Of a stretch of DNA of 64,000 nt, positions 1-29,934 are shown one piece after another. This DNA is from a virus, in the IMG/VR virus record IMGVR_UViG_3300042868_010125, positions 1 through 64,000 of that record; one strand, given 5' to 3'. Made by a program: the position numbers and the translations under genes. Numbering within the stretch: position 1 is the first letter of the stretch; each line of letters opens with the position of its first letter. The notes under the pieces are model-generated. The model saw only the letters and a list, made by a program, of their open reading frames with translations. It did no database searches and was not told where the DNA came from.

Positions 1-456
1 TGGGTCGAACAAGTCTTTATTGGAGTTAAGTTCGTACTTATCACGCCGTGCTACGCCTAATCCACCAATCATGTTGATTTGGAAGATGCCGTATGAATTA
101 TCTCCTGTTTTAACATTGCCATTAAAGGCTAGGGGGCGTCCATTTGACTCTTTCTTGACAACTGCCCACGCTACTTTGAGTGCCTTACCTTCAAACCCAA
201 CGGTGCTTAGCATCTTGGCTAACTCTTCATCGGTAAAGGGAGTTCTTTGTTCAGCGAACTTCTTCAACTCTAGGTCCCTAATTTTTACTTTATGCGCCTC
301 GATTTCTTCTTCAATCTGGGCTCTTACATCTTCTTTACTTTCCATTGTCTGTTGTGCGTTTGATGCTTGGATATATGTAGAGAAAGCGGATACGAATACC
401 ACCGCAATTAAGACACTTACTATTTTTTCGACAACTCTATTGTTTGATTTGTGCAT
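1..456 (-). CDS. Lytic transglycosylase (SLT/lysozyme-like), N-terminal TM/signal; runs off the window
   Basis: Manual translation MHKSNNRVVEKIVSVLIAVVFVSAFS...AWAVVKKESNGRPLAFN...SYGIFQINM shows the ES catalytic motif and GxxQ motif. Not in the ORF track because it is truncated. Confidence 0.75.
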   Translation of the reverse strand, partial: MHKSNNRVVEKIVSVLIAVVFVSAFSTYIQASNAQQTMESKEDVRAQIEEEIEAHKVKIRDLELKKFAEQRTPFTDEELAKMLSTVGFEGKALKVAWAVVKKESNGRPLAFNGNVKTGDNSYGIFQINMIGGLGVARRDKYELNSNKDLFDP

Positions 457-548
457 TTATTTTCCTTTGTTAGGGGACAGAGACAAGGTTGCTCAATTAG
501 CCAACCCGTGCCACCCGCTCTGGGGAGACAGGTATTACAACTACCTTT

Positions 549-587
549 CTAATGCGTCTTTAGGTCGTAAGTCATTTGGTCGTTCAT
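549..587 (-). CDS. Possible leaderless 12-aa leader peptide MNDQMTYDLKTH
   Basis: ATG lies 7 nt after TAACCT (600-595), upstream of a structured leader of the transglycosylase gene. Confidence 0.3.
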   Translation of the reverse strand: MNDQMTYDLKTH

Positions 588-766
588 TGGTACTAGGTTA
601 CCACAATTAGTGCAGGAAAGTAGAGTTTTGGCTCAGCAATCCTCGCAAATAAGCCCATTTCTGTAGTCTCTCTCGTCTACAGCCATAGATTTACCGCATT
701 TCCAACAAGAAATATAAATGATTTGTTTTTTGATGGTTTTCATCTAAATACCCCCCTTTAGGTTAA

Positions 767-795
767 ATAGTACCACCTTCCTGACAAATAGTCAA
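767..795 (-). promoter_or_regulatory. sigmaA-type promoter
   Basis: TTGACT-17-TACTAT. Confidence 0.7.
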
Positions 796-1043
796 AGACA
801 CGCCGAGACAGCAAAAAGCCCCCTAGTCCCAAACAAAGTTTCAGGCAACAAACAAAGTTTTTAGGGGGCTTCTTGCCAAACCTATCTTTTCGGCTTACTT
901 CTCTCTGCTAGCCAGAGTAGCCGTAGCAATGGATGTAAGACCAAACGCTACCGTGTAAGTCATATTGTCCTGCCAAGCCGAGACTAGGGTTGCAAAACCT
1001 AGTACCAGAGTTCCAACAGCAGTCCAGACTATGTTTAAGTTAT

Positions 1044-1241
1044 TCATTTGTTGCCCTTCTTTTTAGGTTTAGTCCTACCCCTCAGGCGAGAAGAAGGATC
1101 TCTTAGTTGCGCTCCACCATTACGGATAGCCTTCCTAGCAGTTCTATAACAAACTCCTAGTTCAACCGCAACACTATCTATAGCCAGACCAGAAGTATAA
1201 AGTTCTGCAGCCCGACCCTCAAGTTTTTTACTTTTTGCCAT
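1044..1241 (-). CDS. Small helix-turn-helix DNA-binding protein
   Basis: AAELYTSGLAIDSVAVELGVCYRTARKAIRNGGAQLR, an actinobacterial HTH pattern. Confidence 0.65.
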   Translation of the reverse strand: MAKSKKLEGRAAELYTSGLAIDSVAVELGVCYRTARKAIRNGGAQLRDPSSRLRGRTKPKKKGNK

Positions 1242-1590
1242 TGAATCCAGAACCCTTTTTTCTCTTAACGGCTCTGTAAATTAAAACTCCAAACAAAACC
1301 GCGAGTGCCGCAGGCGTGTAGACGGAGATGTCAAAGAAGTTACTAGACAACTCAATCCACTCAAACCTACAAGCAAAATCACAGTCAAGCAGTATTTCTG
1401 TTTCTTCCATTAGATTCCTTCTTTCACTTTGTTGTAATGAAGTTCAGCCAGTTCCTTGCGTAGTCTGTTGTTCTCCTGTAATAACTTACCCTGAGCCCTA
1501 ATACCAACCACCATGACAAAGCATGAGCCGGCGAGCGCAATCATAATTCCAATAAGTGTTCCCGTGTCAAGAACCATTTTTTACTTTTTC

Positions 1591-1842
1591 CTACCTTTCC
1601 TGTTTTTCCAGTTTGATAAACATTTCATTGGTTCTCATCTGAGGCATTGGTATCGCTTCCATAAATGCTCTTGCTTCAGCACTTGTTTTTAGTTCAGACC
1701 ATTTCTCAAACTGTTCATCACTCATAGACGCAAACTTAATCAGAAACTCGGCGCGAGGTATGTCAATACTCTGCCTGTCTTTGATAAGAAAGCCTTCTTT
1801 TTTTGCTAAAGCATTTGCTTTTTTAGTTCTCCAACCTGACAT
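1591..1842 (-). CDS. Hypothetical protein
   Basis: ORF with AAAAGGGGG RBS. Confidence 0.6.
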   Translation of the reverse strand: MSGWRTKKANALAKKEGFLIKDRQSIDIPRAEFLIKFASMSDEQFEKWSELKTSAEARAFMEAIPMPQMRTNEMFIKLEKQER

Positions 1843-1867
1843 TATTTACTACCCCCTTTTTTCGTTT

Positions 1868-2023
1868 TTATGGATAAAGCAAGTCTAAGCAGAATTGGTT
1901 CATCTGCTCTGTTGGCACTTTGCACTCGGCAGGTGTTGTCGCGTTATTAGCCCAAGCAACAAGTCCAAGAAAAACAAGTGCTACCGCTACTCTGCGTCTA
2001 ATGTACTTTGCCTTCGTTTTCAT
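1868..2023 (-). CDS. Small membrane/secreted protein
   Basis: Basic N-terminus plus TM segment; RBS AAAGGGGG before ATG 2023. Confidence 0.6.
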   Translation of the reverse strand: MKTKAKYIRRRVAVALVFLGLVAWANNATTPAECKVPTEQMNQFCLDLLYP

Positions 2024-2252
2024 ATAATCCCCCTTTAACCATATTGACAATTTGCCAATAAGATAATTATACAGACTTTCCTGACAAAATCAACTTACCT
2101 GACTTTCGGCGTGTCGCTCTTTTGCTCATATATACGATTAACTACCCAGCCATCTACTTCCATTTTGCTTGCTCTTTCTTCAGCGATTTCCAGCGAAGAT
2201 GCTCGTATAACTTTTGTCTTGTTCTTCTCCAAGATAATCTCGTATCTAGGCA

Positions 2253-2786
2253 TTAGTTTCTCCAAGCCTCGACGCTTGCCTCTTTAAGCCACTTCTCAAA
2301 GCGACCATTGAACAAGGCGTGCTTGCTTCTATTGGCTCTAATCAAGTTAATGGCATCTTCAGCCGTGTAACCCTCACGAATAAGAACCAAAGCCATAATT
2401 AGTCCCGAGCGGTTCATACCTGCTTGACAACGAATTAAGACACGCTGACCGCGCTTCCACTCGGCATGTGCCATGCGAACAATCGGTTGTAAGTCACTAG
2501 GGTCAAAGTCCCTCATATCGCTATCGTAAAATCCAAAGCGTAGTTCTTTCACAAACCAATCAACAGGGTTTGCTAATGAGTAAGCGGTAACCACTAGGTC
2601 AAAATCTTTCTTAGTAATCATTGGCTTTTCTAATTGGTCAAAGACATCATTATCATCAGTTCCACCCTGCCATAAGCCCGGAAGAACCTCTGACCACAAG
2701 TCTTTTGGATAGTCAATCGTGTAAGAGCGTGGTGCTATTTTTGTTTCTAATAGTTCTAATGCTTCGTCTTGCGAGGAAATTGTCAT
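2253..2786 (-). CDS. Dual-specificity protein phosphatase (PTP/DSP)
   Basis: CX5R motif RCQAGMNRS; start moved to ATG 2786 (GAGGGGG RBS). Confidence 0.85.
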   Translation of the reverse strand: MTISSQDEALELLETKIAPRSYTIDYPKDLWSEVLPGLWQGGTDDNDVFDQLEKPMITKKDFDLVVTAYSLANPVDWFVKELRFGFYDSDMRDFDPSDLQPIVRMAHAEWKRGQRVLIRCQAGMNRSGLIMALVLIREGYTAEDAINLIRANRSKHALFNGRFEKWLKEASVEAWRN

Positions 2787-3031
2787 TTGGTTTCCCCCTC
2801 TCTTTTTGTATTTTAGTAAGTAATTAAACATTTGTCAAATTACTTTTCTTATCTAGTTGTTTTTGTATTGCCTTGTTTATCATGTGATTTAAGAAGTCCG
2901 CAGTTGCTTGATAGTCTTTAACACTACGACGCTTTTTGTTTTTCATGTGCTTCATGCGACCATAAGTTCCTAGTATCGCACTATCAGGTAACCCTTTCAT
3001 TTAATCCCCCTTTTTCTTACCTTGTTCCATA

Positions 3032-3060
3032 AGGATAGCACTTTCCTGACTTTTTGTCAA
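3032..3060 (-). promoter_or_regulatory. sigmaA-type promoter
   Basis: TTGACA-17-TATCCT. Confidence 0.7.
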
Positions 3061-3274
3061 GAAGGCAACAATTTTTACAGTTACCAAGCGCTGACTTCCT
3101 ACGCTCAATTTGAGCCCGCTTTGAAATCTACAAACAACTTACGCAGCCAGACAGCCAGGCTGCTGCAATTTTTTTACTTTTTGCTATGGGCCCTGGTGGA
3201 AAGGATCATGATCTAAAAACAACTTTTGGTTCTGCCTTCCGCCTTGATGAAAAAAATGTTAAGTTTTTTCCAAT

Positions 3275-3311
3275 AAAAAACTCCCTGCCGTATAAAGACA
3301 AGGAGTTTTTT
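3275..3311. terminator. Intrinsic terminator, probably bidirectional
   Basis: AAAAAACTCC...GGAGTTTTTT hairpin with A/T tracts on both sides. Confidence 0.6.
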
Positions 3312-3322
3312 GTTTTATTTAA

Positions 3323-3556
3323 TTATCTATCTAACCTAAGTATGCGTACGAGTTCACTAGCAGTTATTTCCCAGCCAGCATCTGTTTTAACGGCAGTAGC
3401 AGGGTGGGGTTCTATGTCAGAAGGTAATACAACTACCTCGTCATAGTTTTCATCTTGATAGAGTTCCCAAGCCTTGATAGCAGGTTCTGCATAGTCAAGT
3501 GGTAGCGGTGGATAAAAGTTTCCCCGTAAGTGGTAACTCATGTTAATTGTGTCCAT
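3323..3556 (-). CDS. Hypothetical early protein
   Basis: ORF with AAAAGGGGG RBS, own promoter and terminator. Confidence 0.65.
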   Translation of the reverse strand: MDTINMSYHLRGNFYPPLPLDYAEPAIKAWELYQDENYDEVVVLPSDIEPHPATAVKTDAGWEITASELVRILRLDR

Positions 3557-3660
3557 TGTTTCCCCTTTTTGTTAGGTTCGGTAGGGAGTCGTATTGTTTC
3601 CCACCCTCTAGAGTTAAAGTGGTTCAGGTGACCAGCGACTTCCCCCTACCGAATAACTTT

Positions 3661-3689
3661 AGTATAGCAATTGTCCAAAGGAAAGTCAA
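3661..3689 (-). promoter_or_regulatory. sigmaA-type promoter
   Basis: TTGACT-17-TATACT. Confidence 0.8.
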
Positions 3690-3800
3690 GTATCTATAAA
3701 CAACTCATTTACCAAGATCCTTAGTAAGCAGCGACAGCAGCACTAGCAAAAAGTAAAAAATATATCTTCAGCAGCCAGATGGCCTAACTACAAACAACTT

Positions 3801-4373
3801 TTAGGATCCGAAGTGCTGCACCGAGATGTTAATCGGCAGCCCCGTGCTTGGATCTAACTTGGCTGCAATAGTTATTGCTTGTCTAATAACATTCTTGGCT
3901 GTGCCTAAGGTTTTCTTTTTGTTATCTAGGCTTGCCAGCATCGCTCCCATAGCGTAGCCACTACCTGAGCCTATGGCGTATACGCCTGTTTCGTCATGTG
4001 CCCAGGAAAAGTCATCACCAATCTCGTAGACAGTCCCATTAACCGCAACCATTATCTGAGAGTCATGCTCTCCGTCTTTACTGTAAGAGTTCTCCTCGAA
4101 GCAACGCTTCATATCTTGGATAAAAACAGAAGATATAAACTTGTCTAACTTTGCCCCGTAAAGGTTTGGATTTATCGCAGGTGGCTTAAAAACATGTGTA
4201 AGTATGTTAATAGCACGCATATCTCCTGCCGCACCAATTAAGTATGGACCGTTTTTATTTACTTTTCCGTTGTCTTTGGGTAGCGTATATATTTTGCTGT
4301 TGTCTTCAGTTAGCCTTGAGTCATAGCCTATGGCAACCCAGTTCTCCCCCTGTATGGCTGCAATAGTTGTCAT
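3801..4373 (-). CDS. Ntn-hydrolase peptidase (proteasome-beta/HslV-like)
   Basis: N-terminal MTTI (Thr1 nucleophile), DSR motif, AIGSGS motif. Confidence 0.8.
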   Translation of the reverse strand: MTTIAAIQGENWVAIGYDSRLTEDNSKIYTLPKDNGKVNKNGPYLIGAAGDMRAINILTHVFKPPAINPNLYGAKLDKFISSVFIQDMKRCFEENSYSKDGEHDSQIMVAVNGTVYEIGDDFSWAHDETGVYAIGSGSGYAMGAMLASLDNKKKTLGTAKNVIRQAITIAAKLDPSTGLPINISVQHFGS

Positions 4374-4405
4374 GATTTTTCCCCAATTGTTTTTTTACTT
4401 TTTGC

Positions 4406-4651
4406 TTAGTTTAGAAAGCCGTCCCACAAATCTTCTCTGAGTTTTTCATACTTATCTCCGTGGTATCCGTTGTTTCTCGCAGAAACATCCTCATCCCGAA
4501 GTAGAGAGTCTAGCGAAAGGACAGCCGTAAAGTCCTTCTCATCAAACATAATAACAATCTTCGTGTCGCCGTCGGCAGGATCATCAACAAGGGCTGCAAT
4601 AAAAGGAACGGCTGACCCGTTGGCGTGATAATACTTATCTACGATTTCCAT
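4406..4651 (-). CDS. Hypothetical protein
   Basis: ORF; leaderless-type -10 TATTTT 6 nt upstream. Confidence 0.55.
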   Translation of the reverse strand: MEIVDKYYHANGSAVPFIAALVDDPADGDTKIVIMFDEKDFTAVLSLDSLLRDEDVSARNNGYHGDKYEKLREDLWDGFLN

Positions 4652-4695
4652 GGTTAAAAAATACCCTACTCTCGGAAGGGTGATTTTGAGTTATT

Positions 4696-4800
4696 AAACA
4701 CCAAACCCCCCAGATCGGTGGGGGGTTGGCGGAGCATGAAGGGGTAGTCCCTGCTCTCAACTTGGGGCGGAAAAGGGGATTAACCGCTACCCAAGGTGAG
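4696..4800 (-). ncRNA. Candidate sRNA with two C-rich (anti-SD) loops and a terminator
   Basis: -10 TAAACT at 4810-4805; hairpin loops UUAAUCCCCUUUU and ACUACCCCUU; C6/G6 terminator stem followed by UGUUU. Confidence 0.6.
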
Positions 4801-4845
4801 AATTAGTTTAGCCTGATTTTTTACTTTTTATTTCCCAAAAGGCGT

Positions 4846-5673
4846 TTAGATTTTATCAACTATTGCCACTGGGACGACCACATTGGCAGAGTAAATCTCT
4901 CCTTTAGAGTTTGTTCTAGAGAATCTTCCCTTAGGTTTATCAAAAGAAATACTGATTTTACTTCTCCTGATAGCAACCACAGTTGCTTCTTCTCCTATCA
5001 AATACTTTGTTCCGCACTTATCGTTTAGGACAACTTTGTCCCCAACTACGAAATCCTTTATATCCGCATCTACTCTTAGGGTGCTAAGTCTTTCCTCTAT
5101 GAGTTTTTTAAGTGGGATTAGTTGTCTATCCAGTTCTCCACCAGCAATAGCATTACAGGTTTCGTCAAACAAATCTATGGAAGTTTTAATCATTTTCTTC
5201 TACCATCCCGTCTTCATTTACAACCCCGATACTATTAGAAACTGACGCTACATCAAATCCGTAGTATTCGTTCATAAATACAGAAGCAACACGAACAGCA
5301 AAATCGTTATCTGCTTCGTTTTCTTCTCTGAGTTTCTCATCTAAGACTATTGTTGTCATTAGCGTAAAGTAGTCACCAACGAACATTACTGTTCGACTCG
5401 GTAGGATATTGTCCATTATTAGTCCGCGTCCTTTAGGTGTTCGGCAATATCTTCAGGATCTGCCCCCATAGATATTAGAACCTTGCGCCATAAACTAGCG
5501 ACTCCAACCTTCGTGTCCATAAGAAAAAATAACTTATCCACAGAAGAATCTTTCTTGTTCTCCCACTTCTCAATATCACTTCTCAACATCTCCAGTAGTA
5601 GTGCCAATCCCATATTTAGGAAAGCACCTTCTTCGGAATCTACTTCCAACATCATTGTTTCTTTGTCACTCAT
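4846..5673 (-). CDS. Three coupled hypothetical genes (5419-5673, 5186-5416, 4846-5193)
   Basis: Tightly packed ORFs; first has AAAAGGGGG RBS. Confidence 0.6.
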
Positions 5674-5724
5674 TTGAGTAACCCCCTTTTCTTAACATAA
5701 GTATCTCATGTAATTTGTTTTTTG

Positions 5725-6111
5725 TCAAGCACCTTGTGGCGCATACTCGACAACGCGAACAATCGCTTCTCGTTCTATTGAGCCAAGATGAACCCATGAA
5801 GTTGCATTTCCAAAAAACTTAGGGTTGTGGTCTGTTCCAACTTCCCATTTGGTTTTGCCAGTAATTTCTGTATCTATCTGATACACAAGCAAAGTGTCAT
5901 GCTCTACATATACGGGGTCGTTGCCTTCTTTAACAAAGTGGAAGTGTGACATCAACCTAAAACCCATAAAGGTTAAACAATCGTTTTCACTTTCGCTTGC
6001 ATAGACTTCGCCAAAACTTGAGATAAGTCCGCGTTCATCTATGCTCTCTCGATTACAGACCGCACTCGCATGGTAAAGATAGCGTGGCAGATTTTTACTT
6101 TTTGTTACCAC
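5725..6111 (-). CDS. Putative ADP-ribosyltransferase-fold / Tpt1-like protein
   Basis: LYHAS...NRESIDERGL...VYAS pattern. Confidence 0.4.
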   Translation of the reverse strand: MVTKSKNLPRYLYHASAVCNRESIDERGLISSFGEVYASESENDCLTFMGFRLMSHFHFVKEGNDPVYVEHDTLLVYQIDTEITGKTKWEVGTDHNPKFFGNATSWVHLGSIEREAIVRVVEYAPQGA

Positions 6112-6413
6112 TCAGACCCCTGTTCTATCAGTTGCTCAAACCCGTCATTAGGATTTTCGTGATTAGTGGTGACTGCTTGTATAAATCTAAGACCGCAAGA
6201 ATCCTCGAACCACTCCTGTAGGGTGGCTAGCATTTCTTCAGGTGTTGCTTCCACATTTGTTATTAGTGGGTCGTACTCGTACTCGCGCATTAGTTCTACC
6301 TGCTCGTCGTCCATTAAGACATAAATCTTGTGGCAGGTGTCCCAAGCGATAGCCTTTGCTTCGCTCACTCTTTCTTTTATTAGTTCCAAGTTATTCATTA
6401 CCCAACCTCGCAA
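6105..6413 (-). CDS. Hypothetical protein
   Basis: ORF overlapping its neighbours. Confidence 0.6.
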   Translation of the reverse strand: MRGWVMNNLELIKERVSEAKAIAWDTCHKIYVLMDDEQVELMREYEYDPLITNVEATPEEMLATLQEWFEDSCGLRFIQAVTTNHENPNDGFEQLIEQGSEW

Positions 6414-6761
6414 TCATGTCCGTAGGCATACATCTCTGAGTCTGTTGGATCTGCTAAATTAAAAACTCTTTCACATTCAACGCACTTTACTTTCATTATT
6501 GCCCCTTTATTCAGTATTGGTTTAAGTATAGCAATTTTTATAAAAAAGTCAAGTTTATTTAGGAAGAATCTTTTTGTGTCTTAAATCACACAACTAATCC
6601 TCCAAAAAAACTGACATTTTTTTCGCTAAGGTTTTTGGCGTATTTAACTAAATAAGTTGTTTGTAGTTTTACCTAGTCACTAGCGATCTTGGTAATTTTT
6701 TACTTTTTGCTAGGACCAGAAAAAAAGAAACCCGGCGTCTAGCCGGGCTTCTCTTTTTGTT

Positions 6762-7229
6762 TTAGATTTCTACTTCTGAGTTTTCCTTTGTACGAACAAT
6801 CACCTTACTGTGTATTTCGTTTCTTGTTTCAGCGAAGTCGCTTGACTTCCAGCACTCATGTTCGTAGGCGCGAACTAGAAGTTTTGCTAATGAGTGTTCG
6901 CTATCTATTTCTAACGCTTTATTTAGGTTGTTAATAGATAGTTCTTTTTCCCCGTTCTCGTATAGGAACGCAGATGAAACTGAATAGAGATTAAGAAGTT
7001 CGGACTGATTGACTTCCTCTATCATTTTTTTACATAGAGAAATCATAAAAGTTAATCCGAAATCGTTCGGCATACCCATAAAGTAATCACGAACAAGTAG
7101 ATTTTTACTTATTGCTCTACTAGATACCTCTAACGCTTCTTTATCTAACTCTTTTGTTTCCATAAAGTTAGTAGCAAGAAAGTTAAGGGATTTTATTGCT
7201 TCACCTATTGTTATTGTCTTTGTTGTCAT
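6762..7229 (-). CDS. DUF4192-like helical protein
   Basis: VRD...ALEIDSEHSLAKLL resembles the actinobacterial DUF4192 C-terminus. Confidence 0.45.
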   Translation of the reverse strand: MTTKTITIGEAIKSLNFLATNFMETKELDKEALEVSSRAISKNLLVRDYFMGMPNDFGLTFMISLCKKMIEEVNQSELLNLYSVSSAFLYENGEKELSINNLNKALEIDSEHSLAKLLVRAYEHECWKSSDFAETRNEIHSKVIVRTKENSEVEI

Positions 7230-7290
7230 TTTTACCCCTTTGTTTTTTAAGAAACCCCCCGCCTTGTGCGGGGGGCTTCCCTTTTAATTA

Positions 7291-7695
7291 TTACCGAGTT
7301 GTTTTTAGAACTGTGTTGGTGCTTTCTGAACTGAAAGCCTCAACTAGCGGTAGGAGTTCAGGATTTTCCTGTAAGAACTTTTCTTTATCAAAGTTTGTAC
7401 GAGTTTGTGTTCCTACTTTGATAACGGAAACTCCGTCAATAGTGCCTTCGTTTGCGACACCAATCCACTTATCGCCAACCTTCTTGTATCCAAGAAGTGA
7501 ATAGATTTCGGCTTGTAGTGATTTGTATTGGGCTTCTAAGGTTGCCTTATCTGCCTTGTTTGCCTCAAACTTCTCTAGAAGTTCTTTGGCATTAGTTTCG
7601 TCAAGAGCGACTACTTTTGTATCGTTCTTGATAGTTGTAGTAGTAGTGCGAACTGCGACTACTGTGTCTACAACACCTTTAACTGTGTTTGTCAT
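7291..7695 (-). CDS. Hypothetical coiled-coil protein
   Basis: ORF with its own promoter TTGACT-17-TATTGT (7773-7745). Confidence 0.65.
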   Translation of the reverse strand: MTNTVKGVVDTVVAVRTTTTTIKNDTKVVALDETNAKELLEKFEANKADKATLEAQYKSLQAEIYSLLGYKKVGDKWIGVANEGTIDGVSVIKVGTQTRTNFDKEKFLQENPELLPLVEAFSSESTNTVLKTTR

Positions 7696-7942
7696 TTGTG
7701 TCTTTTTCCTTTCGGTAAGAGAGAGTTTCTCACTTACATAACGGACAATACACGACTATTTCAGGGAAGTCAAGTCTAAAAGGCAGGAAAGTCTAAAATA
7801 CTTTTATACCCCCGCAGCGGCAGCCTAGTGCTTTTTTTACTTTTTGCTATGCCAGATTTCCTGGAGCCGCAGACTTCCAAACAACTTTTACAAAAAAAAA
7901 GAAGACCTAGCGTTAGCCAGATCTTCTTTTTTCGGGAAGTTT

Positions 7943-8317
7943 TTAGATATACATACCGCTCAGTAGGAAAGAAGCAGGTATAACTTTTTTATCGTAGTTC
8001 AGCCAATAAGCGACTTGTTCATCAGTAAGACCTAAAGTCTCACCCTCATCATCACAACTGCCAGTAATAATCACATTACCGAGAATTGGATTACTAGCGT
8101 TAAAGGCATCTGAGTAGATAGCCGAAGCAATCATATTTAAGGGAAGACCCTCAGCGATGCCGTTTTCGTTGCACCACAAGTCTGCGCCTTCTAAACCAAC
8201 ACACTCAATCATGCCACCAACGGCATCACTTAGTAGTTGGTAAGACTTACCAAAATCAAACTCAACAACGGATTTGTCTCCGTCTGTTGTAATGATTACT
8301 GCTTTTTGCTTTTCCAT
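7943..8317 (-). CDS. DUF3846-like protein
   Basis: LSDAVGGMIECV...LWCNENG...LPLN...ILGNVIITG...LGLTDEQ; promoter TTGACT-17-TACTAT (8374-8346). Confidence 0.7.
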   Translation of the reverse strand: MEKQKAVIITTDGDKSVVEFDFGKSYQLLSDAVGGMIECVGLEGADLWCNENGIAEGLPLNMIASAIYSDAFNASNPILGNVIITGSCDDEGETLGLTDEQVAYWLNYDKKVIPASFLLSGMYI

Positions 8318-8548
8318 TTTTCCCCCTTTACTTGTTGTTGGCTCAATAGTAACAACTAAAAACAAAGAAGTCAAGTACTGACCGCAAGTCTTTAATTTTT
8401 ACTTTTTGCTTTTACGCCGATACTAGTACTCGTGGGTAGTGTGGTTTTTCTACGCCTCTATCCCAGAAGCACACCGCACCGCCCATGTTGTCTACCCACA
8501 AATCAAAGTCGGCTGTGATATCCCAACCGCAACTTTTGCAAGTTACCA

Positions 8549-8770
8549 TTATTCGTTCTCCAATCCTGCCACCATACTCTCCCAGCATTTGGGATGAGTT
8601 CCTGAAATAATCTGTTCCCTTAAAGACATATCCAGTTCAGAGAAAGCCTCTTGTACCGACGCACCCTTTTTGCGTGCCATATACCCTTCAGAAGAAACTT
8701 CTACGAAGCCTCCCTTACCGCACATAGCGCAGGTTGGTGTCCGCATTAAAACTGTTGTGTTGCTTGCCAT
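8549..8770 (-). CDS. Small Zn-finger-like protein
   Basis: CxxC...HxxC; RBS AAAGGGGTAGTT. Confidence 0.55.
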   Translation of the reverse strand: MASNTTVLMRTPTCAMCGKGGFVEVSSEGYMARKKGASVQEAFSELDMSLREQIISGTHPKCWESMVAGLENE

Positions 8771-8812
8771 AACTACCCCTTTCCCTTTAGACATATTATT
8801 TCAGAATAATCT

Positions 8813-9250
8813 TTATTTGTCAAGCATATCAAGAAGCGTCTCCGCATCAAAATACTCCTGATAGACATAATTTTGTGCCGCACAAATAGCATCATCTAAA
8901 GTGTGGGTTACCGCATCAAGGTGTTCTCCGTAGCAATAAAGGTCGAACCAAGAGTTCATATCCATAATTAAAGTTTCGTTCTCTACTGCTTCATTAAACT
9001 TACTGTCCGTATCAAAGCCACCTCGTATTAAATCCGAACCACCCATGTAGTACTCGTCTGTCTTTCGGTTGTGTATCTTTGTATCTCCGTCACAATAAAT
9101 ATCAACGGCAAAGCCTTCGTATGAAACCGTTCCTATTAAACCTTCTCCAGCATAAAAACAAGCATCATATCTTTCGGTAACTGAAGGAACAAGATGAGAT
9201 GCGTATTTGATAACAAACTTGCTTTCGTCCCGCATCTGATATTTTTTCAT
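8813..9250 (-). CDS. Hypothetical protein
   Basis: Start moved to ATG 9250 (MKKYQ), directly after the 14-bp motif. Confidence 0.55.
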   Translation of the reverse strand: MKKYQMRDESKFVIKYASHLVPSVTERYDACFYAGEGLIGTVSYEGFAVDIYCDGDTKIHNRKTDEYYMGGSDLIRGGFDTDSKFNEAVENETLIMDMNSWFDLYCYGEHLDAVTHTLDDAICAAQNYVYQEYFDAETLLDMLDK

Positions 9251-9334
9251 TTTTACTTTTTGCTTTCGCCGCGGCCGCAAAGGGGAAGCAAAGTGGAACT
9301 CCAAAGGGGTAGGAGTTCCACTTGCTCTTTTTGA

Positions 9335-11110
9335 TTAAGCACTTTCGCGCTCACCAATTCTTGTCATAACCGCTTGTGCCGATCTACCAATAACTTCGGC
9401 AGTTTCCGCAGGTTGATTTATGTCTAGAACAATCTCGGCATAATCTCCACCAATATCTTTCGCGCCTCTGCCGTTATCAAATGGCAACCACAAAATCGCA
9501 ACGCCTGACGCTTTACATTTTTCTACAACTTCTCTCGCTCTCTTAGTTTCTTCAGGAGTGTATTCTCCGTCCGAAACAATTACGAGAAGTCTTGCGCCAT
9601 TTCCATTGAGTAGATTTAGTGAGCCGTCCAACGCTTGGAAGGCTTTCTGAAACTTTTCAGTTCCGTCGGAAGCGGAATAAACATTTACTTTATCTAATCT
9701 TTGTCCAACAGATAAAGTTGGGAATACATCATTTCCGTAATAAACCATAGCGCAGTTGCCCTGAATACGATTTACTGCTTCGCTCATTACCCACGCAGTT
9801 GTTGCCATTGGGTTCATAGCACTTCCCATAGAACCTGAAATATCAACCATTACACCAACATTAAGAGTTGGTTCGTCTGTGTGTTTGCGAACTGTTCTAC
9901 GGAAAGGTTTGGCTTGTGCCATTTGTCCCCTTGCACGATAGGCAGTATTTTGGACAATAGCGCGAGCGCGAAGTCTTCCGGGTGGCACGATACTAGAAAC
10001 CTGTATCTCATCTCTTTCGCGATACTTGGCTTTTTCTAGTGCTTCGCCAATAATTAAAGAAGCACGAAGTTCCTCAAAGGTAGGTTCTCTACTTTCAGTT
10101 AGAGTGCTTCGTGTACCTGAATTGCCCGGACCTGAAGTTTTACTAAATACTTTCTTAGCAACTTCTTCATTTTCTTTCTGCTCTTCAGCCTCAGAAGCCT
10201 TAGCCTTAACTTCATCTTTCCAATCTTCAGATTGTTCTTGGTCGGCAAGTTCACCAAAGTTATTTAGTTCTACTGAACTACTTGCTTCTCCAAGTGCGCC
10301 CAAGATTGCTTTAAGAAGTTCCTTAGGTATATTCGCACCTTCTTGATTACTTTCGTCTCCACGCTCTTTAGCAGTATCACGAACAATCTTCGCCCACTCT
10401 TTTGCTAGTGGATAAAGTTCTGTGGCATCTCTGTGATTGTCATGAAGTTGTGCTTTGCGAACTATTTCTCTCAACTTAGAAACAACATCAAGACCAAGTT
10501 GGTTCTCAACAAGTGTAGTTACATCTTTAACTTCATGTGCATCTAAAATACCAGCGTCAATACGAGCATGAACAAGACCAACAAGATTGCTTAAAGATTG
10601 TGTCTGTGTTTCATTTTCCATATCTTTTGTATCGCCAATAACAATTTCCATAGCGCAAGCGCGAAGAAAAGCGCGAGCCTTTGGGTGAGAAACGCTACCC
10701 TGATACTCAATACGACTTTCCTCTAATAAAATTAAGGCTTTGTATTCATCTTTTTCTAATTCTTCATACGCCTTAGGCATAGACCAACCTGAGAAGCGAG
10801 CATGAAACGCTTCGTGAATAATTGCGCCAGTTGCTTTAGGAAACTCATACTGAGTAGCGCGATTAGAAATATCGCCAATCTCTAGTGGACTAATTCCTTT
10901 TCCGAAAGCCACATCAACATTTACTTCTATTTCTGCGGTGCTTGGGTTGTAACAAGCAGGCGCAGGACCGCCAGCACCAGGTCCAACATAGGCAACAAGG
11001 TCGTCACGAAGCGACCACTTGTTTGCTAACTGACCAATATCTCTACCAACTCCTAACCACTCTTTAGGTGTGGCTTCGGCGCGAGTTTCACTCATTTTAA
11101 TATGAGCCAT
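9335..11110 (-). CDS. VWA-domain protein with N-terminal HExxH metallopeptidase-like region (MoxR partner)
   Basis: HEAFH; MIDAS motif DISGSM; IVSDG. Confidence 0.85.
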   Translation of the reverse strand: MAHIKMSETRAEATPKEWLGVGRDIGQLANKWSLRDDLVAYVGPGAGGPAPACYNPSTAEIEVNVDVAFGKGISPLEIGDISNRATQYEFPKATGAIIHEAFHARFSGWSMPKAYEELEKDEYKALILLEESRIEYQGSVSHPKARAFLRACAMEIVIGDTKDMENETQTQSLSNLVGLVHARIDAGILDAHEVKDVTTLVENQLGLDVVSKLREIVRKAQLHDNHRDATELYPLAKEWAKIVRDTAKERGDESNQEGANIPKELLKAILGALGEASSSVELNNFGELADQEQSEDWKDEVKAKASEAEEQKENEEVAKKVFSKTSGPGNSGTRSTLTESREPTFEELRASLIIGEALEKAKYRERDEIQVSSIVPPGRLRARAIVQNTAYRARGQMAQAKPFRRTVRKHTDEPTLNVGVMVDISGSMGSAMNPMATTAWVMSEAVNRIQGNCAMVYYGNDVFPTLSVGQRLDKVNVYSASDGTEKFQKAFQALDGSLNLLNGNGARLLVIVSDGEYTPEETKRAREVVEKCKASGVAILWLPFDNGRGAKDIGGDYAEIVLDINQPAETAEVIGRSAQAVMTRIGERESA

Positions 11111-11232
11111 TTTTACTACCCCCTTTGTTAATCTAATTATTGCATACTAGGTATCTATTGTCAAGTTAATAAGGGGGGCGCATTTCACCTAGAGAAATAC
11201 GCCCCACCCCCCAGCCAAACTAATTTAATAAA

Positions 11233-12285
11233 TTAGATTTTGGCAGGCTTGGCTTCTAACCCATAAGCGCGAGTTAGAACATCTGCGACTACCGCCCTAT
11301 CGTCATTTGGGGCTGACGCGATTAAGTTTGCGATAGCGAACTCAGTTCCGAAAGTTGTTGCTATGTCACGGAAGGCGAGAAGTTCTCGCATCTGTGGCGA
11401 CCAACTTATTCTTTCTTTATTCAAAACCTTGCGATATAAGTTTTGTGCGCAAGTAACCATTTGTGTTGGAACTCCTAAAGTACGAGCCAAGTTCCAATCA
11501 GTTGTCATTTCTGCTTGGACAACAAAGCGAGATAGTAACGCTTCGCTAAGTCTTACGCCCGGAGCCTTTGGATTTGTCGCTGCGACAACATAGAAGTCAG
11601 GGTGAGATTTTACTGTTCCTCTTTCAGGATTAGCAGTAATTGTGATTTCTCTTTTTCCGTCCATGAGATTGTAAATAACTGAAAGAACCTTAGGGTCAAT
11701 CAGACCAATCTCATCTATGAAATAAACTTCGCCATTTTCCGCAGCCTTAACTAAATCTCCGTCCACCCACTCAAAGTTTCCACTAGGAGTTTGGACATAA
11801 GAACCAATCAAGTCAGCAACTTCTACATCACCATTACCAAGTAGTGTGCGAACACCTTCACCGAAAGAAGCCTCAATCAACGCAGTTTTACCTGTGCCGG
11901 GAACTCCATAAAGCATGGCGAACATTGGTTGTCCAACACCAGTTAGAACTGATTGCTTTGTTGCTTCTCTTGCTTTGCGTAGAACTTCTACATCTTTGTT
12001 TTGACCCCATACGCGAGCATGGTAGGCAGAACCATTTGGACGCAAGTAGACACTTTCGCCACCTAAAGCATCAACACTCATTAGAGCATCTGCCTTTGGT
12101 TTGCGTGACTTTCTATCAGCACCAATCGCTCTTTCAACATAGCGACCTTGTGGAAGCACATTGGTAGACAACTGCTTTGACGCATTATCATTTACTCCTT
12201 GCGTTGCCACATCTATAATCATTTCCCAGTAAGTTGGAGAAAGATTAGGACTTAATTCTTTATATCTCTCTTTTAGAGTATTCAT
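11233..12285 (-). CDS. MoxR-family AAA+ ATPase
   Basis: Walker A GVPGTGKT, Walker B FIDE, ATNP, ALLSRF; adjacent to the VWA gene. Confidence 0.9.
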   Translation of the reverse strand: MNTLKERYKELSPNLSPTYWEMIIDVATQGVNDNASKQLSTNVLPQGRYVERAIGADRKSRKPKADALMSVDALGGESVYLRPNGSAYHARVWGQNKDVEVLRKAREATKQSVLTGVGQPMFAMLYGVPGTGKTALIEASFGEGVRTLLGNGDVEVADLIGSYVQTPSGNFEWVDGDLVKAAENGEVYFIDEIGLIDPKVLSVIYNLMDGKREITITANPERGTVKSHPDFYVVAATNPKAPGVRLSEALLSRFVVQAEMTTDWNLARTLGVPTQMVTCAQNLYRKVLNKERISWSPQMRELLAFRDIATTFGTEFAIANLIASAPNDDRAVVADVLTRAYGLEAKPAKI

Positions 12286-12303
12286 AGTTTATCCCCTTTT
12301 CCC

Positions 12304-12759
12304 TTATACCAATTCAGGAAAGCCAAGTGCTTTCCTAGAAATGTGAATACGATAAATTACCTTGTTAGGTGTTTTGCTCTTTCCAATATCATCAGCATCA
12401 TGGCGAGATATTTCTGTAAGGATAGGAGTTTTCTCCATAGCCCAACCATTGGAAATAAGAGTGTCAAAGTAAGAAGTTGTATAGCGCATACGATTTTCCG
12501 TAAAGGTATCTTTATCGCTATCAGGAAGAAGTTGATTGTTGTCAATCAAATCTTTTACTTCTTTAGAGTTAATGGAAGTAGTTCTCCATTGTCTTTTAGG
12601 TGTAGCAGGTGTAACCACTCTTCGGTGGAAAGACATTGGAACTAGACTTCCCGAAGTGTTGTATGCGTCAGGTGTTACAAGTATCTGCATGACTTGTCCC
12701 GGCTTTCGGAACTCGGCATACACCGCAACTCCCTGCACTTTCTTTTCTTTATCCAGCAT
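12304..12759 (-). CDS. Hypothetical protein
   Basis: ORF upstream of the ATPase. Confidence 0.6.
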   Translation of the reverse strand: MLDKEKKVQGVAVYAEFRKPGQVMQILVTPDAYNTSGSLVPMSFHRRVVTPATPKRQWRTTSINSKEVKDLIDNNQLLPDSDKDTFTENRMRYTTSYFDTLISNGWAMEKTPILTEISRHDADDIGKSKTPNKVIYRIHISRKALGFPELV

Positions 12760-12806
12760 TTCTTTTTCCTTTCTAGGTTAAGGTTTCTTGCTAGGTATAA
12801 GTATTA

Positions 12807-13205
12807 TTACATACTTTTGATTATTTTGTCAAATTGCTCTTTTACCAGCGTGTCTGATTGGCAGAAGGTTTCTAGGCTTATCTCGTCTAGAACATTGTCA
12901 GGGTTATTGGTTTCACGAATAGAGACTTTCCCTGAGTGCCACTCAACTACCTGAATTGTGTCGTAGTCAGGTGAGCAGAAATGATTTACTGAAATGCCAT
13001 GTCCCAAAGTATCGTTCCAATTAGCACCCACAATTTGTGAGATACAAATACGAGTTGCGTAGTCAGAGTCGGACCAGCGACTTTCTGCTTTTTGTAAAGC
13101 ATGAGCCAAGATTTCTTTTTGTGCTTCTCCACCCCATTGGGAGTAGATGTAAATTATTGGGTCGGCAGGTTTTGCCTGAAACCCAATCACCATACGATCA
13201 CCCAT
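12807..13205 (-). CDS. Hypothetical phage protein
   Basis: MGDR...YIYSQWGG...RWSDSDYATRI; AAAAGGGG RBS. Confidence 0.65.
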   Translation of the reverse strand: MGDRMVIGFQAKPADPIIYIYSQWGGEAQKEILAHALQKAESRWSDSDYATRICISQIVGANWNDTLGHGISVNHFCSPDYDTIQVVEWHSGKVSIRETNNPDNVLDEISLETFCQSDTLVKEQFDKIIKSM

Positions 13206-13250
13206 TTTATTTCCCCTTTTCTTTAGGCTTGGCAGAACTCTACCAAATTG

Positions 13251-13898
13251 TTATTCCTTTGTCAAGACCAAATCCTGCTTGGCGTGAAGTTCTATTGGCT
13301 TCAGGTTCTCAGGACAATCGTCGTAAAGGTCGTCGTAATCGCCATCAAAGTTTTCACATCTCCAGCAGTAGTTGTCATTGGCTTCCATCTCTTCTTCATG
13401 AGTTGATGGAATATCCCACTCTCTAATAATTTCGGTCGTTGAGCCCTGAAAGTTTATTTCTGCTCCCCAGCCCTGTTCTTCACGAAACTCCAAAGTCATG
13501 TTCACATTAGGATTTTGTTGTGCCAGTTTTTCTATGACCTGAGTTGGTGAAGACCACGCAGTATCAAACTTATAGTGAAGAGATGTTTCATCTTCTTCTA
13601 GAAGTTCTACCTCGCAGGCATCCCACTTAGTTCCCCACTCACGATTATTAAAGTTATACCAGTTGTATTCGCTATCACCTTGCTTTTTTCCGTCAGCGAA
13701 CCCATGAGTTCCATAGTATTCATCTAACTTGTCTGCTGGTGGTGGAAGGATATTCATAAAAGAAAAAATAGGTTTTTTCTCTACTTCTTCTTTATCCTCA
13801 TACCTAGTTGTAATGCTTGCGCCAACCTGCGCTTTTAATTTTGCTATGTCTTCTTTAGAACCATCTACTGATAAATGATTAAACACCCAATTAGGCAT
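13251..13898 (-). CDS. DUF1281/YubB-like ferredoxin-fold protein
   Basis: MPNWVFN...WYNFNNREWGTKWD...FDTAWSSP. Confidence 0.75.
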   Translation of the reverse strand: MPNWVFNHLSVDGSKEDIAKLKAQVGASITTRYEDKEEVEKKPIFSFMNILPPPADKLDEYYGTHGFADGKKQGDSEYNWYNFNNREWGTKWDACEVELLEEDETSLHYKFDTAWSSPTQVIEKLAQQNPNVNMTLEFREEQGWGAEINFQGSTTEIIREWDIPSTHEEEMEANDNYCWRCENFDGDYDDLYDDCPENLKPIELHAKQDLVLTKE

Positions 13899-14157
13899 TT
13901 TTACCCCCTACTAAGTTTTCACGAAACTCGGGTAAAGTAAAATCAGGAAGACCAAACATAAATCCCCCACCATTACCCTCTTCATCTTGCGAGAGAACAA
14001 GTTCAACAAGTTCTCCATTTGTAAGTTTTGCTATGAACATTGGAAAACCGCGACCACCAAAATCATCAGGGTCAGTTCCCTTGAACCTAATAATTGTTGC
14101 GCCTTCAAGTTGTTTGTAATAGCCCATGTTCCAGCGTTCCTGTGTATCGTCTTTCAT
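13891..14157 (-). CDS. Hypothetical protein
   Basis: SQDEEGNGGG motif; promoter TTGACA-17-TATGAT (14273-14245). Confidence 0.65.
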   Translation of the reverse strand: MKDDTQERWNMGYYKQLEGATIIRFKGTDPDDFGGRGFPMFIAKLTNGELVELVLSQDEEGNGGGFMFGLPDFTLPEFRENLVGGKNA

Positions 14158-14533
14158 ATTGCCCCCTTAGTTTTATAGTCCGTGTTCGCAAGTAGCGGAC
14201 TAACCCACCTTCACAAATCGCTCATACAAGCGGTGCGAAACGCCATCATACAAGAACCGCATCTTTTTGTCAAGTATCCTTGTCCCTCGTTCAGATGACA
14301 AACGCCGGAATACCAGACATCACAACAACTTCGGGACCTTCGCTTTTTTTGACAGCGGCAATTTTTTTACTTTTTGCTTGCGTGCCCGCATACAATTTTT
14401 ACTTTTTGCTAAGGAGTCTTCCAACTTTCGGAGTAGTGTATAAACAATTTTTATAGTTTGATGACTCGGGTATTTGGATGGGAAAATACAAAAGGCGTGC
14501 CTTTTCAGACACGCCTAAAGTAAGTTAAAAGTA

Positions 14534-14923
14534 TTACACGGTGGCTCTAGTTTTCCAACCCTCGCCAGTTATTTTTATTCTGAACACAGACTCGAAAGCC
14601 GTAGCAACCAAATCTGTTATATCTACCCACTTATCCGTTGCATTAAACAAAAGACTCGCATTAGGGTAGTCAGGCAAATCCGCATCCGATGTGTAGTCAC
14701 CAAGCACTACAACCCTGTCGCCAGCCCAACGCCCAGAGATACCCGTATCAGGTAAATCCCCGTTGCCTCGGTTAGGACTTGTCATTGTTAAGATATACAT
14801 GGCGTCGGCAAGCGTGCCGTTGAATTCGCCAAGATGTTCATATTGCTTTAGACCCAAGCCGAGCCCGTGTGGTGATACAACTTCTTCTTTATCTAGATTT
14901 ACTAGAACATGGTATTGACCCAT
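14534..14923 (-). CDS. Hypothetical phage protein
   Basis: MGQY...VNLDKEE...GRWAGDRVVVLGDY. Confidence 0.7.
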   Translation of the reverse strand: MGQYHVLVNLDKEEVVSPHGLGLGLKQYEHLGEFNGTLADAMYILTMTSPNRGNGDLPDTGISGRWAGDRVVVLGDYTSDADLPDYPNASLLFNATDKWVDITDLVATAFESVFRIKITGEGWKTRATV

Positions 14924-15138
14924 TAGTTAATCTCCTCAAGTGAGATTGTTAAGTTCGATGTTGAGTACTCCTCGTCATCTCCCTCATGTGTAGCAGGTTC
15001 TTCAATCTGCGGTGCAACATGCCCGATTAGATTATCTTCTTCTTCAGACGAAAGTACTTTGTCCGTATCAAAAGAAATCACCATTCGATATCTAGCCATT
15101 TGGCTTCCCCTTTCTAGGTATCTTTATCTTAGCAGTTT

Positions 15139-16065
15139 TTAGTTGTTTGTCAAGTTAAATTGCTTAGGGTAAAAGAGTGTCGTGGTTTTGTAGGCATTGA
15201 CTAAGGAAGCATTAACGCTAGCCATAACCGTACTTAGGTTCTCGCCACCAGAGAGTCTTTTATTTAGGTAAGTAGCAAAAGCCACAGTTGCGTTAGAAGT
15301 TCCTAGAGATAGGGACTTCTTGTCTGATATATCAGTTGTGATGTATTTGCCGTAAGTGTAAAGGTCAAGGTCAGCACCATTGTTAGATGTAGCCATAATT
15401 GGGTACACCCAACCTGAGACTCCTCGCATTGAGTATCTGTCCTCGGTTGCGCCCACCGCAATCGCTTGTGGGATACAAGCAGGGTAGTCAATCTTTGTGG
15501 CGTTGCCACCATTACCAGCAGAGATAACAACTGCTACATCTGAAGCAATAAGGTTTGAGATTTGAGTTTGAAGTTTTGTCTCTATTGGACATGAAGCCTG
15601 TGAGTAGGCTCTACCTAGAGAGATAGATACCGCACCAACATTTAGTCGTGTCTTATTCTTCTCAACATAATCCAAAGCCCAAGATATTGCTTTAGTTGTG
15701 TAAGGAGTCGGCACACCTCGTGGAGTCATGCCAGCAACTCGGATAGAAACAATTTTTACATTTGGGTCGATGGCTACTGCTACTGAAGCCATTTGAGTCC
15801 CGTGACTAAACGAACCAGCAGTTGTCATAGCAGGAGTAATCTTTGATGCGCCAGCGCCAGTCATTTGTGAAAAGCCATTTGGACATCTGTGAAACTCAAG
15901 AAAGCACGCTTCATCTACAACCGCACTTTTAGCCCAAGCCAAATCTGTGTTTATGCCTGAGTCGATAATTACTAAAGTTTTCTCACCAACCGCGCTCGCG
16001 GTTTGGGTGGGAATTAAAGTTACCGAAAGGGCAACTACCATAAGTATAATTTTACTTTTTGTCAT
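15139..16065 (-). CDS. Secreted subtilase (S8 serine peptidase)
   Basis: Signal peptide; IIDSG, HGTQMA, SAGN, GTSNA. Confidence 0.9.
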   Translation of the reverse strand: MTKSKIILMVVALSVTLIPTQTASAVGEKTLVIIDSGINTDLAWAKSAVVDEACFLEFHRCPNGFSQMTGAGASKITPAMTTAGSFSHGTQMASVAVAIDPNVKIVSIRVAGMTPRGVPTPYTTKAISWALDYVEKNKTRLNVGAVSISLGRAYSQASCPIETKLQTQISNLIASDVAVVISAGNGGNATKIDYPACIPQAIAVGATEDRYSMRGVSGWVYPIMATSNNGADLDLYTYGKYITTDISDKKSLSLGTSNATVAFATYLNKRLSGGENLSTVMASVNASLVNAYKTTTLFYPKQFNLTNN

Positions 16066-16230
16066 TTGTTTAACACCAATCTTTGTCCTGCCCCTAACCC
16101 CAGCCCAACGCCAAAGTTTTCAAAACAATGTTGGCACATGTTTGCCCATGGTCCAATCTTTGTTCGTGCATCATAATTTGCTACTTCACCGCAGAAATCG
16201 CAGTTAGGTAAATTAACTACTTCTACTTGC

Positions 16231-16548
16231 TTAGACATTTAGTTCCCTTACGCTATCTGCCATTGCTTTAGCATCAACTAGATTGTTCCAGTCTTCTGCT
16301 CTAATGTCAAGTAGGAACTGTATTGGTTCGACGTCATTTCCGACGTGAGCCAGGACGAGTGCCCTGTGATGGACAATGTCTTTGTTTGTATGACCTTGGT
16401 GGTCGAAGACAACCATTTGTAAAACATGGATGCCATTTGTAGAGAGAAAAGGCGCCCTCTCTGGGTACTGATTAAAATTAAGCACCTGTGCTGTCTTGAT
16501 TAATTTTTTCAGTGTATTTGAGTTTACTGCTTTGTATTTGTTTGTCAT
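16231..16548 (-). CDS. Hypothetical protein
   Basis: ORF with TTGACA upstream. Confidence 0.55.
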   Translation of the reverse strand: MTNKYKAVNSNTLKKLIKTAQVLNFNQYPERAPFLSTNGIHVLQMVVFDHQGHTNKDIVHHRALVLAHVGNDVEPIQFLLDIRAEDWNNLVDAKAMADSVRELNV

Positions 16549-16774
16549 AGAAGTATCTAACCATATGTTTAAACGTTTGTCAAATCAACCTTCGATGCGA
16601 CATCTCTCATGCTCATTCATACAGCAAACACAGTAATTCTCATGAGCATCGTGACTACAGCATTTATCGGGATCTACTTTATCTAAAAGATTATTTAGCC
16701 AGCGATTTATTGTGTCAGCGGTTCTGACATTTAAATCGGATGTCGGTTCTAGTTGTTGCTGAATTTCTTTTAAT

Positions 16775-17137: not shown

Positions 17138-17158
17138 GCCGTTATGCTAGCAATGGCT

Positions 17159-29860: not shown

Positions 29861-29934
29861 GCGAATGTAGTTCAATGGTAGAACTTCTGCCTTCCAAGCA
29901 GATAGTGAGAGTTCGATTCTCTCCATTCGCTCCA
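29861..29934 (+). tRNA. tRNA-Gly (UCC), CCA encoded
   Basis: Acceptor stem GCGAATG/CATTCGC, anticodon arm TCTGC-CTTCCAA-GCAGA, GTTCGA T-loop. Confidence 0.95.

Follow-up and report, generated by a model that had tools for sequence, protein, structure and literature searches.

A conserved C-loop RNA family of lake actinophages and its possible action as a mimic of the anti-Shine-Dalgarno sequence

The C-rich loops of the actinobacterial small RNA 6C (B11) pair with G-rich ribosome-binding sites (RBSs), such as the AGGGGGG of panD, without Hfq or ProQ (PMC6486639). The RNA is encoded by a chromosomal gene of Actinobacteria and folds into two stem-loops with about six or more C residues per loop, the second stem-loop doubling as terminator. 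In mycobacteria 6C represses dnaB and panD. Small RNAs with UCCC/CCCC motifs are also found in the Firmicutes, where they include RsaE/RoxS and other Rsa RNAs (PMC2790875) and RNAIII (PMC2837412). RsaE/RoxS, RNAIII and the LhrC RNA of Listeria occlude Shine-Dalgarno (SD) sequences by means of unpaired C-rich loop motifs. Among phages, the c4 RNA of P1 and P7 is a small RNA whose loops pair with RBS-overlapping sequences in an mRNA of its own phage, and the RegA protein of T4 is a repressor that shuts off the translation of many early mRNAs late in infection by way of their initiation regions. Little is known about regulatory RNAs in lytic phages, and the literature that we searched describes none for actinobacteriophages; within that literature the statement of the original prediction, that no phage small RNA silencing a class of early mRNAs by RBS type had been described, holds.

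The window, by which we mean the whole stretch of DNA analysed, comprises the first 64 kb of the 101.6-kb record of an uncultured virus. The host is almost certainly an actinobacterium, because the genome carries three WhiB-family genes, which are markers of actinobacteria and actinophages, and its large terminase has its nearest relatives in actinophages, the closest being that of the lake 'Actinomycetia phage DSL-LC01' (76 %; PMC10611076), followed by those of Microbacterium, Gordonia and Arthrobacter phages. The left arm also holds an early set of genes for protein modification or degradation. The genes concerned are as follows.

16862-17074 of the window, minus strand: WhiB-family gene
84989-85186 of the genome, minus strand: WhiB-family gene
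86023-86226 of the genome, minus strand: WhiB-family gene
2253-2831, minus strand: dual-specificity phosphatase
3801-4373, minus strand: HslV-like peptidase
11233-12285, minus strand: MoxR-type ATPase
9335-11110, minus strand: VWA-like protein, adjoining the MoxR-type ATPase
15139-16065, minus strand: subtilase

The RNA element lies within a 194-nt gap (4652-4845, minus strand) between minus-strand ORFs of 115 aa (5193-4846) and 81 aa (4651-4406), the second of which is followed by the HslV-like peptidase gene. Neither the acidic 81-aa protein nor the 115-aa protein gave a PHROG, Pfam, PDB or Atlas lead, so that we see no sign of a partner RNA chaperone. The original prediction placed on the minus strand a TAAACT box followed by three hairpins, two of them with C-run loops and the third a C6/G6 terminator, and on folding all of these parts are present. 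They are arranged as listed here, together with the neighbouring features to which we return below.

4818-4829, minus strand: imperfect version AAAAAGTAAAAA of a 14-mer of the left arm (GCAAAAAGTAAAAA), lying 7 nt ahead of TAAACT and invariant in clade A
4805-4810, minus strand: -10-like hexamer TAAACT (TANNNT type), with neither a -35 box nor TGn
4755-4801, minus strand: hairpin 1, whose stem varies with pairing preserved
4771-4783, minus strand: loop 1, UUAAUCCCCUUUU, with the family core C4-6 then U2-5
4732-4756, minus strand: hairpin 2, GAGCAG../..CUGCUC (GAGCGG/CCGCUC in clade B)
4739-4748, minus strand: loop 2 region, ACUACCCCUU, with the family core ACCC(C)
4699-4731, minus strand: hairpin 3, terminator-like, with the conserved base CGCCAAC/GUUGGUG
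4693-4698, minus strand: short U-rich tail UUUAAU after hairpin 3, the probable 3' end
4656-4681, minus strand: fourth small hairpin, ACCCU/AGGGU plus U6, directly ahead of the SD-less ATG at 4651 of the 81-aa gene

The minimum free energy of the element is -49.6 kcal/mol (z = -3.76), and none of 200 shuffled sequences gave an equally good fold. Hairpin 3, directly followed by UGUUUAAU, was detected as terminator-like by a terminator scan, in keeping with the role first assigned to it; the terminator features at the 3' end are this hairpin and the U-rich tail, the latter being weak or absent in some clade B members. Its inner stem is C6/G6 here, and in clade B a U/C-rich arm is paired with an A/G-rich arm. 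Loop 1 has an unpaired probability of 1.0 in this genome and of 0.89-1.0 over all 22 variants of the family. The C-run of loop 2 is paired in this genome with the GGG at 4751-4749 (unpaired probability 0.29), a partial sequestering that is confined to the sub-lineage of the window; in other members loop 2 is fully open. The fourth hairpin is weakly supported, its stem being broken in relatives L063 and L086.

The 81-aa gene always comes next after the RNA, and in both clades it lacks a Shine-Dalgarno sequence (window 4651-4681; in clade B, for example, L051:8075-8103). A TAnnnT hexamer (TATTTT, TAGTCT or TACCCT) stands 6-7 nt ahead of its ATG, and together with the missing SD this suggests that the gene may be translated from a leaderless mRNA.

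Relatives of the element were collected by three routes: the flanking proteins led to nine close and five distant IMG/VR contigs, a family-specific pattern to 28 further metagenome loci, all of them true members, and a looser pattern in viral contigs to five true members amid chance matches. The family so assembled comprises 43 loci, among which we count 30 different 235-nt versions and 22 different RNA sequences, and it is spread over about 35 contigs of lake phages; its pattern occurs on phage or metagenome contigs only, and searches with the family model R1 find one copy per genome and no paralogues. There are two clades. Clade A resembles the window, its left arm showing an overall identity of about 85 %. 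Clade B, which blastn does not align, was recognised by its synteny upstream of homologues of the 81-aa and HslV-like proteins, by the blocks GAGAGC, GCUCCGCCAAC and GUUGGUGU that it has in common with clade A, and by weak to moderate matches to R1 (E from 0.7 down to 3e-4). The order of element, 81-aa gene and HslV-like gene is common to both clades.

All 22 distinct members share the three-hairpin fold, and their stems have been rewritten with pairing retained. Within clade A, pair 8-40 of hairpin 1 is U-G in six cases, C-G in six and U-A in three; one sequence has jointly lost one G and one C from the stem (GGG/CCC to GG/CC), and exchanges of G-C with G-U and of A-U with G-U occur several times in the stems. 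Clade B has a hairpin-3 pair that is C-G in four cases and U-A in two. From one clade to the other, hairpin 1 exchanges its inner stem GCGG/CCGC for GGUG/CACC, GGAAC/GUUCC or GUGGAG/CUCCAC, and in hairpin 2 an A-U pair gives way to G-C; this between-clade co-variation is taken from folds of the individual sequences, since the alignment made with MAFFT (A3) is not faithful to the structure when both clades are in it, and a model-fitted alignment (A4) was left out of the counts on account of two spurious rows. The C-run of loop 1 is present in all members and ACCC(C) is kept in loop 2 of all. Conserved loops with co-varying stems, the pattern that the original prediction suggested looking for in related phages, are what the 22 variants display. 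Over its 110-nt core the element is 93-95 % identical to its relatives, against a left-arm mean of 85 %, which places it in the top 4-10 % of windows; the bases right after the upstream stop codon and right after the terminator are variable. As judged by these comparisons, it is well supported that the element represents a conserved, structured, non-coding RNA family of lake actinophages, and the view that the C-run loops are under selection while the stems co-vary is likewise supported.

The intergenic region between the MoxR-type ATPase and VWA-like genes (11111-11232, minus strand) likewise ranks near the top of the left arm in conservation over 110-nt windows, with 98 % identity to relatives; it contains a strong terminator hairpin with G-rich and C-rich arms, then a TTGACA promoter and then a GGGGG RBS.

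The resemblance to 6C lies in the actinobacterial setting, in the tandem hairpins that expose C-runs and in the terminator hairpin at the end, and true 6C RNAs, when folded, show this design of tandem C-run loops. The phage RNA differs in having three hairpins, with a terminator loop that is not C-rich, and shorter C-runs (C4 and C4 here, C4-6 and C3-4 in the family) followed by U-runs; it is also phage-encoded, and it was not found in 185,579 species genomes, where the only two matches to the family pattern were chance ones inside high-GC coding DNA. A search with the Rfam 6C model, suggested together with the original prediction, gave no 6C match at E<=10 on 4400-5100. Over the whole genome this model (RF01066) has a single, unrelated 14-bit match (7231-7283, plus strand) and does not match the element; its gathering cut-off is 47 bits, and true 6C RNAs score 70-92 bits. 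In our search 6C itself was located in 8 of the 151 Actinomycetota genomes sampled, each of them large and presumably of high GC. At gathering thresholds, Rfam 15 finds only a tRNA-Gly (29861-29931) in the whole window, and a permissive scan of 4400-5100 returned LhrC, CRISPR-DR18 and snoRNA, all as sub-threshold noise. The LhrC model (RF00616) scores 17.8 bits on the element (E 6.3) against a cut-off of 110 bits. The terminator hairpin of LhrC resembles the inner part of hairpin 1 almost base for base; however, the hosts of RsaE, RNAIII and LhrC belong to a different phylum and the matching hairpin is the terminator in LhrC, and the resemblance is most likely convergent. No match to the locus was obtained by blastn among 50,697 phage records. 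In DSL-LC01, the nearest named phage, R1 has no match near the HslV gene and the gaps between the genes of the early block contain no C-loop RNA; we give this single, confounded comparison no weight. Judged by these searches, the RNA family is new and uncatalogued, and in kind it is a variant of the known C-loop regulatory RNAs. The analogy with 6C, RsaE and RNAIII that was drawn at the outset fits to the extent that the C-loop design is shared and the host is actinobacterial.

A -10 box had also been noted for the element; the hexamer TAAACT is present, but in clade A it would be a putative promoter at most, the -35 box and TGn of the phage's left-arm promoters being lacking. Those promoters form a tight class of about eight, TTGACw-N14-TGnTAnnnT (-35 box plus extended -10), seen on the minus strand between 760 and 17200 ahead of the starts at 743, 3000, 3556, 6496, 8317 and 17137. 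The hexamer, TAAACT in clade A and TAAAGT in clade B, has the same spacing to hairpin 1 in the two clades. In clade A no standard promoter was found before or after the element, nor between it and the downstream genes, and there the element may therefore be just an internal part of an operon transcript. In clade B an extended -10 sequence, TGTTAAAGT, precedes hairpin 1 by 7 nt. The genes upstream, save for a doubtful 59-aa ORF with a TTG start, are encoded on the opposite strand, and a canonical TTGACA-N16-TAnnnT promoter serving an 80-aa gene follows hairpin 3; these last two features place the element outside the mRNAs of both neighbours. Actinobacteria commonly have promoters that consist of TANNNT only, and terminators whose U-tail is poor. 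The RNA may arise from a non-standard and perhaps regulated promoter or by excision from an operon transcript. Assembled contigs of relatives about 90 % identical span the region in two metatranscriptomes, one marine and one freshwater, and since they carry no information on ends, strand or expression level they are uninformative as to a discrete RNA.

Most of the left-arm promoters listed stand after a terminator-like hairpin and before an RBS of the GGGG type. The early block of DSL-LC01 (L102, OQ999401; 18000-44000) has TTCTAAAGATGTTATAAT promoters about 20 times after terminators, and the RBSs of that phage are of the GAAAGGAC type. We considered the 14-mer upstream of TAAACT as a -35-like promoter element and ruled it out, because its other copies, about 20 in number, are not accompanied by a -10 box at constant spacing. 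These copies of (A)GCAAAAAGTAAAAA (280-19104, minus strand) are confined to the left arm and co-oriented with its transcription, and some abut or overlap start codons (1577, 9250 and 19093). A second dispersed motif, AAGTTGTTTGTAG, occurs in left-arm intergenic gaps (for example at about 3190, 3790, 6660, 7870 and 17400-17700), often near the 14-mer, with several copies co-oriented and one reversed.

The genome uses two RBS dialects. That the early genes share a GGGG type of Shine-Dalgarno sequence complementary to the loops was implicit in the original prediction, and for the left arm the RBS counts bear it out: on rough gene calls, GGGG occurs in the RBS window of 14 of 42 left-arm genes against 4 of 96 elsewhere (Fisher 1.2e-5), and GGAG/GAGG in 2 of 42 against 27 of 96 (p 0.0013). 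Five further GGGG sites stand ahead of starts that the gene caller missed (743, 2786, 3556, 6496 and 8317). These minus-strand starts, with GGGG(G) 5-9 nt upstream, are likely to be true ones that longest-ORF calling missed or misplaced, 2786 and 8317 being the probable starts of ORFs 2253-2831 and 7943-8374. On the sense strand of the left 16.6 kb, 19 of the 44 runs of four or more G residues coincide with RBS positions, whose share of the sequence is about 4 %. Predicted duplexes of loop 1 with the RBSs average -7.3 kcal/mol for left-arm genes and -3.7 kcal/mol for the others (p 1e-5), and for the best targets the predicted loop duplex is 3-5.6 kcal/mol better than that with a generic 16S tail. 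Host-type promoters suggest that the left-arm genes are 'early'. In clade B the GGGG RBSs are a minority (5/24, 5/21, 1/14, 1/10 and 1/11) and the large genes use GAGGAG; DSL-LC01 (55 % GC) has GGGG in 1 of 60 RBSs, a single, confounded comparison that carries no weight.

Particular pairings of 10-13 nt with individual RBSs had been put forward as the targets, and the quoted complementarities are all present in the sequence of this genome. The candidate sites are these.

3001-3013, minus strand: AAAGGGGGATTAA, directly before ATG 3000; loop 1, 13/13 with one G:U, the best match at -16.3 kcal/mol
2024-2036, minus strand: AAAGGGGGATTAT, before ATG 2023; loop 1, 12/13
12288-12300, minus strand: AAAAGGGGATAAA / AAAAGGGGAT, MoxR-type ATPase gene (12285); loop 1, 10 contiguous nt
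11115-11125, minus strand: AAGGGGGTAGT, 591-aa VWA-like gene (11110); loop 2, one G:U
1848-1858, minus strand: AAGGGGGTAGT, before ATG 1842; loop 2, one G:U
8772-8781, minus strand: AAGGGGTAGT, before ATG 8770; loop 2, 10/10

With up to two mismatches, the complement of loop 1 occurs seven times in the window against 2.7 +/- 1.7 expected, one of the seven being the RNA gene itself; two of 100 shuffles reached this count, which is a modest statistic alone. A comparison of orthologous start regions in five relatives showed no co-variation of these sites with the loops, and in this respect the proposed targets gain no support. The RBS of the VWA-like gene (11110) is invariant in all five, yet four of these have AACACCCC in place of ACUACCCC in loop 2, with which the pairing drops from 10 to about 7. 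At 3000 the RBS flank ATTAA has become ACTCA in relatives with loop 1 invariant, and at 2023 the RBS has changed with the loop unchanged. The RBS at 8770 differs in all five relatives, including one with the same loop 2, and the gene at 1842 is absent from four of the five. The RBS core of the MoxR-type ATPase gene (12285) is conserved. The sole conserved pairing is that of the core, AAAGGGG:CCCCUUU (7-8 nt), which is little diagnostic because any Shine-Dalgarno core would be conserved anyway. From this comparison the long exact matches are best treated as lineage-specific or due to chance. The RNA thereby differs from c4, which has one dedicated target and matched sequence pairs in the same operon; for the phage RNA the proposal is a class of RBSs recognised by their short G-run, and the five relatives revealed no dedicated target that co-varies with it.

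The reading that we prefer is that the locus encodes a small RNA similar to 6C, one that would imitate the anti-Shine-Dalgarno sequence and cover RBSs with G-runs; on the models and comparisons described, we hold the case for it to be evenly balanced. The locus would be the gene, or an excised segment, of a phage small RNA some 100 nt long (minus strand, about 4798 to 4696), in which two hairpins would display single-stranded loops of a C-run plus a U-run, CCCCUUUU and CACCCCUU, and a third would end the RNA. The two loop sequences resemble CACCUCCUUU, which we take to be the anti-Shine-Dalgarno tail of 16S rRNA, with C replacing the central U. Most probably they would base-pair with AAAGGGG-type Shine-Dalgarno sites, borne by about 19 left-arm (early-type) genes, and so exclude ribosomes. 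Since CCCC is a better partner for an all-G run than the ribosomal CCUCC, and GGAG would mismatch the loops, the GGGG class could be damped selectively; exposed CCCCUU loops that mirror the GGGG RBSs of early genes would probably damp their translation. The fold, the accessible loops and their conservation, and the split in RBS types are what the sequences show; we infer that the RNA is a discrete species and acts in trans, and likewise the identity of its mRNA partners. The chemistry and the tandem C-loop design are those of 6C, so we read the element as a phage-encoded anti-SD mimic that is like 6C but not a member of its family. A further step, in which the two SD dialects (GGGG for early genes, GGAG for the rest) and a CCCC mimic that outcompetes ribosomes on the GGGG class alone together make a class-wide switch-off of early translation, is plausible, if on balance less likely than not; an RNA without the early promoter signature would fit delayed expression. 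Such a role would be like that of RegA, with the difference that RegA is a protein and the agent here would be an RNA mimicking the anti-Shine-Dalgarno sequence. Several findings tell against an anti-SD mimic that acts on phage mRNAs: co-variation of loops and targets is missing in the five relatives, clade B has few GGGG RBSs and large genes with GAGGAG, loop 2 is largely self-paired in this genome, and TAAACT falls outside the left-arm promoter class in an element that is perhaps operon-internal in clade A. Moreover, any pyrimidine-rich loop appears complementary to RBSs.

The invariance of the loops while the phage RBS flanks drift, and their retention in clade B despite its few GGGG-RBS genes, would be expected if the RNA were a functional mimic of actinobacterial 6C that shuts down host genes with G-rich RBSs, the match to phage RBSs being incidental. 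The RNA might also act on phage and host mRNAs alike. The host is indeed actinobacterial, and 6C too consists of tandem hairpins with C-run loops that act on G-rich RBSs. We nevertheless regard this explanation as unlikely, for it names no host target and leaves the concentration of G-runs at the phage's early RBSs unexplained, the element resembles 6C neither in sequence nor by covariance model, and 6C turned up in only those few sampled actinobacterial genomes mentioned above, all of them large. The clade A arrangement, an element between co-directional genes with no standard promoter on either side, invites the alternative that it acts only in cis, as a 3'-UTR or inter-cistronic element that terminates, attenuates or stabilises the operon transcript or guides its processing, with no target in trans. 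The terminator-like hairpin 3 and the gene order kept in both clades agree with this, as do, weakly, the metatranscriptome contigs that run through the element. Hairpins that terminate or stabilise need no loops of fixed sequence, however, and here it is the loops that are fixed and the stems that drift; clade B, moreover, has its canonical promoter between the element and the downstream gene and its upstream genes on the opposite strand. A purely cis-acting role is in our judgement decidedly unlikely.

Nor do the loops have to act on RNA. Dimeric RNA-binding proteins typically have sites in which neighbouring hairpins carry two similar loop motifs, and the junction GCUCCGCCAAC and the base of hairpin 3 are fixed in sequence beyond the needs of pairing, as might be the case in a decoy or scaffold whose C/U-rich loops bind a KH or poly-C-binding protein, ribosomal protein S1 or a phage regulator. 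We found no candidate protein, the conserved neighbours (81 aa, acidic, and 115 aa) being without family or structure match, and the known C-loop precedent in the phylum is one of RNA-RNA pairing; we consider a protein-binding role very unlikely.

In summary, if the anti-Shine-Dalgarno mimic outlined above is real, a virus would time a whole class of genes through an RBS 'dialect' and one small RNA that mimics the docking sequence of the ribosome. This would be an RNA counterpart of T4 RegA, and it would extend the chaperone-free C-loop mechanism of the 6C type from actinobacterial chromosomes to the viruses of these bacteria. Even without that mechanism, the element constitutes a structured-RNA family that can be added to RNA databases and used in the annotation of lake viromes.
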